Assembly: GCA_964553335.1 (NCBI GenBank)
Contig: CAZKKW010000005.1
Coordinates: 11,199-55,246 of the forward strand
Length of the DNA stretch: 44,048 nucleotides
Direction: 5' to 3'
Source of the DNA: an uncultured Hyphomicrobiales bacterium
Lineage (GTDB): Bacteria; Pseudomonadota; Alphaproteobacteria; Rhizobiales; JACESI01
Of the stretch, positions 31,704 through 38,090 are shown piece after piece. How positions within the stretch are numbered: the stretch's first letter is position 1; every line of letters begins with the position of its first letter. The translations under genes and the position numbers were made by a program. The notes under the pieces were generated by a model. That model searched no databases and was not told the origin of the DNA. It saw nothing but the letters and a program-made list of their open reading frames with translations.

Positions 31704-32207
31704 ATGGCCGCGTATCGTGTTTTTGAATTTCCAAATGCTATGCCCGAACAGGTGCAGGACGGCAGAAATGTCGAATTGATACGCGATGGTTTTTCCTTCC
31801 TCGTGGTCTTGTTTCCTGCCGTCTGGCTTTTGTGGAATCGTGTATGGTTCGGCTTTGCGATTTATGTTGTGTTTATTCTGGCCTTTGTCTTAGCCAGTGA
31901 ATTGATCAATCCGTTGATCGGCGTGTTGTTGAATAGTCTGCTTGGTCTTTATCTTGGGTTTGAAGGCACAAATTGGCGGGCGAAAAAATTTCTTGGTAAT
32001 GGCTGGCAGGAAGTGGACGTTGTTTTGGCGAGCAACTATGAAGAAGCTGAAATGCGCGCCTTTGCAAATCGCATTGACGATGTAGTTGAAGAGAAACCAG
32101 AACCAATTCTTCCGAACCGAATTTCGCAAGTATTGAAAAGGCCGCCATCAAAAACAAAACCAGTGATTGGGTCTTTCCCATCCCCATCAACAAGGCCGCG
32201 TTCATGA
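31704..32207 (+). CDS. DUF2628-like small membrane protein inside the his operon
   Basis: Two to three hydrophobic segments after a [22 protein letters not shown] motif. Its stop overlaps the hisH start (ATGA at 32204-32207). Confidence 0.65.
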
Positions 32208-32855: not shown

Positions 32856-33590
32856 ATGATCCTCTTCCCCGCCATCGACCTTAAAGACGGTGAATGTGTG
32901 CGCTTGAAGCTTGGTGATATGGATCAAGCAACGGTTTTCAACGATGATCCGGGTGCGCAGGCCAAGGCGTTTCAAGATCAAGGCTTTGAATGGCTCCATG
33001 TGGTTGACCTCAACGGTGCCTTTGCGGGTAAGCCGGTGAATGGGGACGCGGTCGATGCGATTTTAAAAAGCACCACCAACCCTGTGCAGCTCGGCGGTGG
33101 TATTCGTGATTTGAAACAAATCGAGACGTGGCTTGATAAGGGCATTAAACGGGTGATCCTCGGCACGGTGGCGGTGCGTGATCCTGAGCTCGTTAAAGAG
33201 GCCTGCCGTTTATTCCCTGATCAAGTGGCCGTCGGCATTGATGCCAAGGGCGGATATGTGGCGGTTGAAGGATGGGATGAAACATCTGAACTCACCACGA
33301 TTGATTTGGCGAAGAAGTTTGAAGATGCGGGTGTATCGGCAATCATCTTCACGGATATTGACCGCGATGGCATTTTGAAGGGTCTCAATTTCCCGTCCAC
33401 CATTGCGCTTGGGAATGCGGTTTCTATTCCGGTTATTGCCTCTGGCGGTTTGGCGTCGATTGATGATGTGAAGCGCTTGATGGAGCCGGATTGCGCAAAG
33501 TTAGAAGGCGCCATTTCCGGCCGCGCCCTTTATGATGGTCGCCTTGATCCGGCTGAAGCGATGGCGGTGATTAAGGGGACAGCATCATGA
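32856..33590 (+). CDS. hisA: ProFAR isomerase HisA
   Basis: [12 protein letters not shown]-terminus and (beta/alpha)8 phosphate-binding motifs (GGGIR, ASGGL). Its stop TGA overlaps an ATG (ATGA at 33587-33590). Confidence 0.95.
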
Positions 33591-33715
33591 CCCTCAAATC
33601 CCGTGTAACCCCCTGTCTTGATGTGAAGGATGGACGTACCCGCCTCGCGCGCAGCAACGTAGTTGTGAGCACGGGCAAAAGGAAGAATCGACGCGATGAA
33701 GGATTGTCCATATGA
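33587..33715 (+). CDS. Possible 42-codon mini-ORF 1 (HisF residues 1-17 fused to a 25-aa basic tail)
   Basis: Translates as [42 protein letters not shown]. Its ATG overlaps the hisA stop and its TGA overlaps the next ATG. It inherits the hisA-end SD (AAGGGGA). Translation has not been demonstrated. Confidence 0.3.
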
Positions 33716-33840
33716 CTCTCAAATCCCGTGTAATTCCCTGTCTTGATGTGAAAGATGGACGTACCCGCCTCGCGCGCAGCAACGTAGTTGTGAGCACGGG
33801 CAAAAGGAAGAATCGACGCGATGAAGGATTGTCCATATGA
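33712..33840 (+). CDS. Possible 42-codon mini-ORF 2 (HisF residues 1-17 fused to the same 25-aa tail)
   Basis: Translates as [42 protein letters not shown]. An AAGGA SD lies 8 nt upstream, supplied by the insert. Its TGA overlaps the hisF ATG at 33837. Confidence 0.3.
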
Positions 33841-34607
33841 CTCTCAAATCCCGTGTAATTCCCTGTCTTGATGTGAAAGATGGACGCGTCGTTAAGGGTG
33901 TCAACTTTGTTGATCTTATGGATGCTGGTGATCCGGTGGAAGCGGCGAAAGCTTATGATGCGGCAGGTGCGGATGAGCTAACATTTCTCGACATCACCGC
34001 GTCATCTGATAACCGCGATACGATCTTTGATGTGGTGCGCGAAACGGCGGAGCATTGCTTTATGCCGCTCACTGTTGGTGGTGGCGTGCGCAAGGTGGAA
34101 GATATTCGCAAACTGCTTTTGGCAGGTGCCGATAAAGTGTCGATTAATACCGCTGCGGTTAAAAATCGTGATTTTGTCAATGAAGCCGCCAATAAGTTTG
34201 GCAATCAGTGCATTGTCGTTGCAATCGACGCGAAGGCCGTGGGCGATACCTGGGAAATTTTCACCCATGGTGGACGTGAACCAACAGGCATCAACGCGAT
34301 TGAATTTGCCAAAGACATGGCGGCACGTGGGGCGGGTGAAATTTTGCTCACGAGCATGGACCGCGATGGAACGAAGTCGGGTTTTGATAACAAAGTCACC
34401 CGCGCAATTGCTGATAGCATTTCTATTCCAGTGGTTGCATCTGGCGGTGTTGGTGAGCTTGATCATTTTGTCGATGGTGTGAAAGAGGGCGGTGCGAGCG
34501 CAGTGCTTGCAGCCTCCGTTTTCCATTTTGGTACATTCACTATTGGCCAAGTGAAGCATCATATGGCAAAAGCTGGTATAGACATGCGACTTGACGGTCT
34601 TGCTTGA
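33837..34607 (+). CDS. hisF: Imidazole glycerol phosphate synthase, cyclase subunit HisF
   Basis: Intact 256 aa. N-terminus [19 protein letters not shown], plus DELTFLDIT and SGGVG motifs. Confidence 0.95.
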
Positions 34608-37363: not shown

Positions 37364-37433
37364 ATGAACCTCGTTCATATTTTTTTGATTAAAGTTATTT
37401 TGACTAAAGTTATATTGTTGATTAATAACAATA
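37364..37433. promoter_or_regulatory. Candidate operator cluster upstream of the TetR gene
   Basis: Inverted repeat ATGAAC-ctc-GTTCAT (37364-37378). Direct repeats GATTAAAGTTAT and GACTAAAGTTAT (37387-37398, 37402-37413). Inverted repeat TATTGTT-gattaat-AACAATA (37413-37433). All lie in the AT-rich divergent region. Confidence 0.35.
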
Positions 37434-37463: not shown

Positions 37464-38090
37464 TTGAAAATGGAACAATCTTATCGGGATGAGATGAGAG
37501 AAAAGCTCATCCTGGCAACAATTGACCGTCTCGCTGTTTCTGGCATAAGCGGCGTTCATGCGCGCGATTTAGCGAGTGAGGTCGGCTGTGCGGTTGGTAC
37601 GATTTATAATCTTGTTGGTGACCTTGATAATCTTATCCTCTTGGCATGTGCGCGTACGTTCAAAGAATATCAGGCATATGTGACAAATTATTTGCAACAA
37701 GAGAAAGAAAAGGGGGCGACCAATCTCCAATTGTTAGAAGCATTGGGTGCCTCTTATGTGGATTTCTCGTCTCTCCATCGTTTGCGTTGGCAGGCAGCTT
37801 TCGAAGTACGCTACGACAAAGATAGTGATTTTCATCACATTTTTAAGACGGGGCAACGCGAGCTTTTATGTCTTATTGTCGACATTCTCAAAGAGATAAA
37901 TGCCGATGTTGATGAGAAGGAATTAGCAAGTATTGGCCGAGCACTTTGGGCTTCTGTTCACGGTATTTCCATGCTTGCGGCCTCAAATCCGAGGGGCGCA
38001 CTGTCAAGAGAAAAAATCCTCATTCAATGTAATCGGATTATTCATCCCGTTATTGAAAGTTTGGAAAGGCGCGAAAAGCCCAAACCCTAA
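37464..38090 (+). CDS. TetR/AcrR-family transcriptional regulator
   Basis: N-terminal HTH (ISGVHARDLASEVGCAVGTIYNLVGD) and an all-helical C-terminal domain. Start is TTG 37464 or ATG 37470. Confidence 0.85.
   Translation: MKMEQSYRDEMREKLILATIDRLAVSGISGVHARDLASEVGCAVGTIYNLVGDLDNLILLACARTFKEYQAYVTNYLQQEKEKGATNLQLLEALGASYVDFSSLHRLRWQAAFEVRYDKDSDFHHIFKTGQRELLCLIVDILKEINADVDEKELASIGRALWASVHGISMLAASNPRGALSREKILIQCNRIIHPVIESLERREKPKP

Follow-up and report, generated by a model that had tools for sequence, protein, structure and literature searches.

The stretch of DNA analyzed here, which comes from an uncultured Hyphomicrobiales bacterium and is referred to in its full length of 44,048 nucleotides (nt) as the window, carries a gene cluster composed of hisB, a DUF2628 gene, hisH, hisA, hisF, hisE, coaA, grpE and a TetR gene. 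A tandem array sits between the fourth and fifth genes of this cluster, hisA and hisF. This array is a lineage-restricted, copy-variable junction cassette, each unit of which combines a decoy duplicate of the first ~46 to 50 nt of hisF, termed the head, with a spacer of ~73 to 75 nt. The features of the junction in the window are listed below, where ORF stands for open reading frame; designations of the type L001 refer to related loci in public assemblies.

32856 to 33590, plus strand: hisA (244 amino acids), the TGA of which overlaps the first ATG of the array; the identical product in L001 to L015 matches Pfam His_biosynth.
33587 to 33711, plus strand: unit 1 (125 nt), consisting of head copy 1 (33587-33636) and a spacer (33637-33711), as delimited by Tandem Repeats Finder, repeat families D1/D2 and alignment.
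33587 to 33715, plus strand: mini-ORF 1 (42 codons), the TGA of which overlaps the next ATG; the identical ORF is predicted as a gene on independent contigs.
33630 to 33635 (unit 2, 33755-33760), plus strand: ATGGAC, 5' strand of the predicted closing helix, corresponding to hisF codons 15-16 of the head (inverted repeats I1/I2).
33642 to 33676 (unit 2, 33767-33801), plus strand: central imperfect hairpin of the unit 1 spacer, predicted by RNAalifold at alignment columns 56-90.
33699 to 33703 (unit 2, 33824-33828), plus strand: Shine-Dalgarno (SD)-like AAGGA, 8 nt 5' of the next ATG (sequence and alignment).
33706 to 33711 (unit 2, 33831-33836), plus strand: GTCCAT, 3' partner of the predicted closing helix, abutting the next ATG (inverted repeats I1/I2).
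33712 to 33836, plus strand: unit 2 (125 nt), the head of which equals that of the true hisF and the spacer that of unit 1.
33712 to 33840, plus strand: mini-ORF 2 (42 codons), the TGA of which overlaps the ATG of hisF (ORF list).
33837 to 34607, plus strand: true hisF (256 amino acids), the first 50 nt of which (33837-33886) form the third head; it matches PF00977, and its best named matches are annotated as imidazole glycerol phosphate synthase subunit HisF.

With Tandem Repeats Finder, one long-period tandem array was detected at 33587-33886 (period 125, 2.4 copies, 97% matches, score 572). The 50-nt head is present three times, starting at 33587, 33712 and 33837, and the first copy shows 92% identity to the other two, with four differences in the alignment. 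Both units share, without any difference, a 77-nt stretch that includes the 75-nt insert (33635-33711 and 33760-33836), and no further match to it was detected in the window at up to 3 mismatches (chance expectation, 0). The repeat-family search revealed no second head-duplication event elsewhere in the window. As seen in the window sequence and the ORF list, ATGA stop/start overlaps on the same strand are present at 33587-33590, 33712-33715 and 33837-33840, and the translation of the mini-ORFs begins with MTLKSRV(T/I), the T/I position being the difference between the two 42-codon ORFs. The inverted hexamers ATGGAC and GTCCAT belong to a 20-nt inverted pair that is 70% complementary. The SD sequence, AAGGA in the window, is GGAGGA in most other lineages, and the energies of the duplex with the anti-SD sequence range from -5.5 to -9.3 kcal/mol. 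No promoter-like or terminator-like site was found in the array, and no terminator-like site between 32800 and 34700. An earlier annotation of this DNA, made from its letters and here called the sequence-only reading, had described the repeat period, heads, insert, ORFs, SD sequence and hexamers; all of these were rechecked and found to be right in every detail.

Alleles of the junction were gathered by exact HisF and HisA protein look-ups in public assemblies (ENA, Logan and NCBI), which cover several samples and assemblers. The junction length between fixed anchors in hisA and hisF was 97, 216/222 or 347 nt, corresponding to 0, 1 and 2 units, respectively. No unit was present in L001, L005, L008, L037 (GCA_039964305.1) and L042 to L044, and a single unit was found in L002, L004, L006, L007, L009, L010, L014, L016/17 and L035/36, the last two being NCBI metagenome-assembled genomes (MAGs; GCA_039973685.1 and GCA_039975815.1). 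Two units were observed in L003/L011 and in the window. Two-unit alleles are rare; 1-unit alleles are widespread and diverged. The two spacers of L003 differ from each other and from those of the window, and its middle head carries a private variant, so that this 2-unit allele could not have been produced by collapsing or expanding 1-unit alleles. Taken together, these data indicate that the cassette is real and copy-number polymorphic, with 0, 1 or 2 units, in natural strains.

The alleles differ by whole units, with breakpoints within the direct repeats, which is a feature of unequal-recombination polymorphisms. L007, which contains one 119-nt unit, and L001, which contains none, differ at 3 of 771 hisF positions; the junction of L001 corresponds exactly to that of L007 minus the unit, and the two heads of L007 have an identical left part of 22 nt. 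The head of L037, which lacks units, is of the upstream-copy (copy-1) type, which is the remnant expected if a deletion occurred head by head and the crossover lay at the right-hand end. The middle head of the window equals the true hisF head, and the two spacers there are identical, which fits a recent slippage or unequal exchange. These comparisons suggest that copy number changes via recombination between the directly repeated hisF heads. Two proposals of the sequence-only reading agree with these data. An older insertion or duplication followed by a recent 125-base-pair duplication is in line with the abundance and divergence of 1-unit alleles, the rarity of 2-unit alleles and the identity of the window inserts, and an unstable amplification hotspot is in line with the existence of all three alleles and the L007/L001 pair. 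Its proposal of a long target duplication was not upheld, since the upstream head travels with the insert and resembles its counterparts in other lineages more closely than the local hisF head.

The nearest named proteins are HisF sequences of MAGs designated "Hyphomicrobiales bacterium," and those of Hoeflea, Aquamicrobium and Mesorhizobium are just 78 to 81% identical. All outgroups with a HisF that is 88 to 92% identical have a plain 4-nt hisA/hisF overlap and no insert. The plain ATGA that the sequence-only reading had considered for relatives was thus found in these outgroups; it is therefore the ancestral state, and the cassette is derived. In-group HisF proteins share at least 98% identity, yet the 4-fold degenerate sites of hisF differ by 31 to 53% between lineages. 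The in-group lineages are species-level, and at least five of them carry the cassette. As a separate observation, the combination of a HisF identity of 98 to 100% with this 4-fold divergence in the comparisons of the window with L007, L009, L017, L035, L037, L042 and L045 points to unusually strong purifying selection on the whole protein.

In another in-group lineage, with a HisF that is 98% identical, the same junction contains a different insert of 105 nt (L045:1096-1200; L046:691-795). There, hisA ends with TAG, neither an overlap nor a duplicated hisF head is present, and an SD sequence (TTAAGGAAATGCC-ATG) is supplied by the insert itself. The insert folds as a long, near-perfect palindrome (-43.8 kcal/mol, z = -3.3) that resembles repetitive extragenic palindromic (REP) elements or miniature inverted-repeat transposable elements (MITEs). 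Since this insert differs from the cassette, the junction has been struck at least twice independently.

The frame of the mini-ORF is open and ends in ATGA in 20 of the 20 units, which have 40 or 42 codons and encode 11 different peptides; an in-frame 6-nt deletion sets the 119-nt unit type apart. In the spacer core, 57 of 73 columns were invariant across five lineages, as compared with 37 of 127 hisF 4-fold sites (binomial P ~7e-18), and two spacer blocks of 14 and 15 nt did not vary at all in a set of lineages in which 71% of the 4-fold sites vary. The mean pairwise difference was 0.118 in the spacer, 0.26 at third codon positions of the 90 nt of hisA directly 5' and 0.42 at those of the true hisF head directly 3'. 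With flanks at these values, divergence shows no local trough of the kind that a recent sweep extending into the flanks would leave. Between lineages, the copies of the upstream head were more alike (0.23) than the true heads (0.42).

The peptide does not follow this pattern. The variable spacer columns are distributed over codon positions 1, 2 and 3 in a ratio of 6/7/4, as counted on the alignment, the invariant tail residues show no synonymous change either, and the head copy has collected the replacements I8T, C10W, L11F and D15G at sites that are invariant in true HisF. According to the alignment, the tail shows no protein-level conservation, and the constraint is on nucleotides and structure. 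A conservation far above that of silent sites, the lack of a codon-position bias and the compensatory pairs reported below argue in concert for constraint on the nucleic acid and not on the peptide.

Two helices were predicted in the spacer RNA. The central hairpin identified by RNAalifold contains an inner stem of 5 base pairs, CAAC(G)..GTTG, with a compensatory pair; pair 70/78 is A-U, U-A or G-C, pair 68/80 is G-U or A-U, and 100% of the cells are paired. The spacer is closed by a second helix, formed by the hexamers (columns 44-49 with 120-125), in which pair 45/124 is U-A, U-G or C-G, the non-pairing combination C-A never being seen. Double changes are present at two pairs, 70/78 and 45/124. 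For both helices together, tested on the same sequences from which the structure was derived, 97.4% of the cells pair, and none of 500 shuffles reached either the covariation score or the double-change count; across the different covariation analyses, 0 to 2 of 500 shuffles reached the observed score. Shifting the helix partners by 1 to 3 columns abolished the covariation signal. The closing helix is part of the predicted minimum free energy structure of the window and of L017. In Rfam 15, no gathering-level match was obtained for the window, the best sub-threshold match being a nematode small nucleolar RNA with 16.7 bits against a threshold of 52 bits, and a comparison of the array with known RNA families gave none at E <= 10.

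Predicted pairing extends to the translation start. Complementarity exists between the SD region (ACGCG..GGAUU) and hisF codons 4-7 (AAUCCCGYGU); the predicted partner of this region is the head of the same unit or, across the start codon, the head that follows. According to the folding, predicted structure covers the SD/AUG region, which would bear on the dependence of downstream translation. At the ancestral junction, an analogous, stronger hairpin (~-15 kcal/mol) is predicted between the 3' end of hisA and the hisF head, burying the SD sequence and the AUG. In the window, this pairing of the hisA 3' end (GCGG.UGAUU.AGGG) with hisF codons 2-8 (CCCU..AAUC.CCGC) lies at 33561-33608, and it was also found at the 0-unit junctions L001:2975-3022, L037 and L042:1175-1222. 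As modeled, this hairpin is the structural basis for the coupling of hisA and hisF and is older than the cassette. The 3' end of the spacer pairs with the same hisF bases as the 3' end of hisA.

We favor, as a somewhat probable explanation, a joint account in which the cassette has a single origin, is kept translatable, changes its copy number head by head and has a spacer that is constrained as a folded RNA. The cassette would have arisen once, by an old insertion or duplication. Homologous recombination or replication slippage between the repeated heads would subsequently lead either to the gain of units or to a precise loss that restores the plain ATGA. It may have been tolerated, and in part selected, because each unit rebuilds an SD sequence, a start codon and a stop/start overlap. 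Ribosomes that finish hisA would translate a throw-away mini-ORF, terminate on the next AUG and reinitiate, and would in this way still supply hisF. The spacer would act in cis as a folded RNA, through the central hairpin and the pairing over the nucleotides just 5' of the next AUG. Its fold, and not the peptide, may tie hisF initiation to upstream translation or may otherwise set the level of HisF. The relay resembling an upstream ORF (uORF), as put forward in the sequence-only reading, is plausible in view of the open frame, SD sequence and ATGA that are kept in all 20 units. The cassette is probably an unusual but modest tuning or passenger element and not a new kind of machine. It appears doubtful that it is a self-contained, cis-acting "translational relay" module under RNA-level selection that gates or tunes HisF with respect to HisA/HisH stepwise by copy number and that has spread between the species of the clade by recombination.

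A number of findings weigh against this joint account. Half of the in-group lineages are without the cassette, which is hence dispensable. A frame of 25 codons is open by chance in ~30% of cases according to our own estimate, so that the statistics of frame maintenance are weak. The covariation was observed over five independent lineages and rests on two pairs and few events, the single-sequence folding energies are no better than those of shuffles (z of +0.6 to -0.8), and in alleles of the GGAGG type a local AUGGA/UCCGU hairpin is in competition with the closing helix. Part of the low spacer divergence could be due to a younger age and recombinational spread between lineages. Finally, in constructs derived from the window the cassette lowers the predicted opening energy of the hisF start from 12.2 to 5.8 kcal/mol, but the natural alleles overlap in accessibility, with 5.1 to 14.8 kcal/mol in 0-unit alleles and 5.2 to 9.3 kcal/mol in unit-bearing ones. 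Folding with and without units, a comparison suggested in the sequence-only reading, thus yields a drop in the window constructs but no consistent difference across natural alleles. We have dropped the idea that the cassette opens the hisF start, and no direction of effect is claimed.

The alternative that survives best, which we consider possible though not probable, is that the cassette is a neutral scar. It would be a one-off duplication or insertion without function that looks conserved because it is younger than the lineages and was passed between them by homologous recombination, its copy number drifting by slippage. The frequency of 0-unit alleles, which shows that the cassette is dispensable, the mosaic nature of the flanks between lineages, the unremarkable thermodynamic stability and the lack of a consistent effect on predicted start-site accessibility are all consistent with such a scar, and gene conversion from the true head can explain most of the third-position variation in the copy-1 head. 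However, silent divergence adjacent to the spacer is not reduced (0.26 and 0.42, against 0.118), paired positions in two helices change in a compensatory or wobble-preserving manner, and the 14- and 15-nt blocks are invariant where most 4-fold sites vary.

As to the origin of the 75 nt, it is also conceivable that a junction-spanning segment of 125 nt, namely, the last 75 nt of hisA and the first 50 nt of hisF, was duplicated in tandem and that the copy of the hisA tail then diverged, apart from those segments that pair with the hisF head and the SD sequence. We consider this unlikely. By arithmetic, such an event yields exactly the observed geometry and a 42-codon chimeric ORF ending in ATGA. 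In addition, the consensus 3' end of the spacer, GACGCGATGGAG--GATTA, resembles the end of hisA, GAAGCGATGGCGGTGATTA, and both 3' ends pair with the same bases of the hisF head (AAUCCCGYG). Against this, the global alignment of the spacer with the hisA tail was not significant (P = 0.07), the hisA tail ranked 167th of 4370 sequence windows in local similarity to the spacer, and no similarity to hisF positions 51-125 was detected in a global alignment (P = 0.5). Moreover, the remainder of the spacer is without similarity, although the spacer now evolves slowly. A blastn-short search of the window for a source of the spacer gave nothing longer than 11 to 15 nt.

It is quite improbable that the cassette is a small element, either mobile or site-specific, with the hisF start as its target, be it a REP/MITE-like element, an element of the IS200/IS605 type with a single-stranded DNA hairpin or an integrative remnant with a replacement hisF start. 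Its presence or absence with precise boundaries in near-identical backgrounds, the tandem copies, the imperfect 20-nt inverted ends, the conserved hairpin with a variable stem and the occupation of the same junction by another, unrelated palindromic insert in L045/46 would suit such an element. Nevertheless, no second spacer was found in the window at up to 3 mismatches, with blastn-short or with a covariance model (R1). This model scored the array copies at 102 bits and the next-best site in the window at 10.6 bits, and it gave nothing above 21 bits outside the known copies. A degenerate pattern that spanned both invariant spacer blocks matched at 6 loci in 185,579 GTDB species genomes, at 11 in JGI metagenomes and at none in IMG/VR, and all of these matches were unrelated chance matches in DNA with a guanine-plus-cytosine content of 57 to 72%. 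Distant blastn searches of plasmid and phage collections returned only matches with E >= 2. Among 5.8 billion proteins, the mini-ORF search retrieved only four clusters, all of which were placed at the hisA/hisF junction, some by retrieved contigs and others by contig-length or peptide matches. There was thus no further copy of the 75-nt insert, let alone the many REP-like copies that the sequence-only reading had allowed for, in the window, species genomes, metagenomes, viral contigs, plasmids or phages scanned, and its candidate REP/MITE-like element is not supported.

The architecture of the cassette points in the same direction. The Pfam matches of the neighboring genes include no integrase or transposase family, and the window contains no tRNA. 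The hexamers vary between lineages with compensation and are not conserved as a sequence. The flanking direct repeat measures 46 to 50 nt, and its upstream copy is not the local target sequence. Instead of a hybrid, att-like head, as would be a feature of an integrative element with attL and attR sites, the upstream head is wholly of the conserved "unit type."

The two remaining alternatives can be dealt with briefly. That the mini-ORFs encode a functional basic micropeptide is highly improbable, since the open frame in all units and the invariant tail parts RLAR, VVSTGKR and GLS are set against invariant residues without synonymous variation, so that it is the nucleotides that are fixed, as well as against the lack of a third-position excess among variable columns, the head replacements at positions invariant in true HisF and the lack of a Pfam match for the mini-ORF. 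An assembly artefact, namely, a repeat expansion in a short-read MAG, is very unlikely: the window apparently derives from a metagenome-assembled genome, as do its named close relatives, and the identity of its spacers makes the second unit depend on reads spanning 125 nt, but other samples and assemblers independently yielded 0-, 1- and 2-unit alleles, and both spacers and the middle head of L003 carry private variants.

Further observations concern the surroundings of the array. A 22-nt direct repeat (82% identical, 999 nt apart; window 33349-33370 and 34348-34369) lies at the paralogous motifs T-D-x-D-R-D-G in hisA and hisF and is the sole other repeat that joins both genes. The DUF2628 gene (167 amino acids; window 31704-32207), located between hisB and hisH, has a stop codon that overlaps the hisH start by 4 nt, and its position is conserved in all related loci. 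In some in-group lineages, ~630 nt are inserted between hisH and hisA (L016:2637-3269, L017:72-704, L037:1-469); this insert contains an ORF of 99 amino acids on the opposite strand with no significant Pfam match (best E = 0.1), and in the window hisH and hisA are adjacent. Short AT-rich tandem repeats with periods of 15 and 21 are found downstream of grpE (window 37381-37425 and 37593-37634).

The cassette shares features with several known systems. ATGA overlaps support termination-reinitiation coupling (Huber et al. 2019, PMC6728339), and, as in such gene pairs, hisA, the two mini-ORFs and hisF are all joined by 4-nt ATGA overlaps on one strand, with an SD sequence upstream of each. The cassette differs from them in that it reiterates the overlap through one or two throw-away ORFs copied from the start of the downstream gene itself. 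A similarity also exists to intra-operon minigenes and uORFs, such as the axe-txe minigene (PMC8708949) and the upstream ribosome-binding sites of Sinorhizobium meliloti (PMC13285730), which likewise feature a short ORF directly upstream that overlaps or abuts the start and the translation of which can open or occlude the downstream ribosome-binding site. In contrast to these, the N terminus encoded by the cassette duplicates that of the regulated gene, its copy number varies within the clade, and it has no amino-acid-sensing codons.

Like REP elements, bacterial interspersed mosaic elements (BIMEs) and MITEs, the cassette is small, has hairpin potential and imperfect inverted ends, lies between operon genes and shows presence/absence polymorphism; unlike them, it occupies a single locus, has no copy family, includes a long duplicated head in its unit and keeps a translated geometry. 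It is the L045 insert at the same junction that resembles this class. As in tandem-duplication polymorphisms, the alleles of the cassette have n-1, n or n+1 units, with boundaries that fall exactly at direct repeats of 46 to 50 nt. Ordinary unstable duplications are young and unconstrained, whereas the unit of the cassette is conserved over species-level divergence, with a spacer that is structured and constrained.

The enteric his leader-peptide attenuator also combines a short ORF in a histidine operon with nearby RNA hairpins. We rejected such an attenuator as an explanation, since the mini-ORF has no His codon, there is no terminator-like site between 32800 and 34700, and the array is internal to the operon, not a leader, with another geometry. 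Programmed translational bypass of the T4 gene 60 or byp-like type was likewise rejected: successive heads do have matching GAT GGA codons, but the codon that follows is CGT, CGA or AAG and not a stop, and the true hisF has its own SD sequence and ATG. In full-text literature searches, publications on uORFs, minigenes and coupling through ATGA were retrieved, but none that described a reiterated cassette of a gene start or a chain of this kind. The components, namely, the stop/start overlap, the minigene, the duplication polymorphism and the small hairpin element, are known; what is new is their combination, its conservation across species and the structured spacer at a single locus.

The host is uncultured, and the practical impact is therefore limited. 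The cassette contains a short conserved RNA structure outside the known families. Even if it were neutral, it would provide a clean, datable case from nature of how units come and go at a translationally coupled junction. If the relay were true, the cassette would be a natural, modular and copy-number-tunable intercistronic regulator without a described family. If it sets HisF output, it would show how an insertion into a stop/start overlap becomes harmless by rebuilding that overlap, and it would be an example of natural tuning within an operon by the addition or removal of a modular unit, with promoters and coding sequences left untouched.

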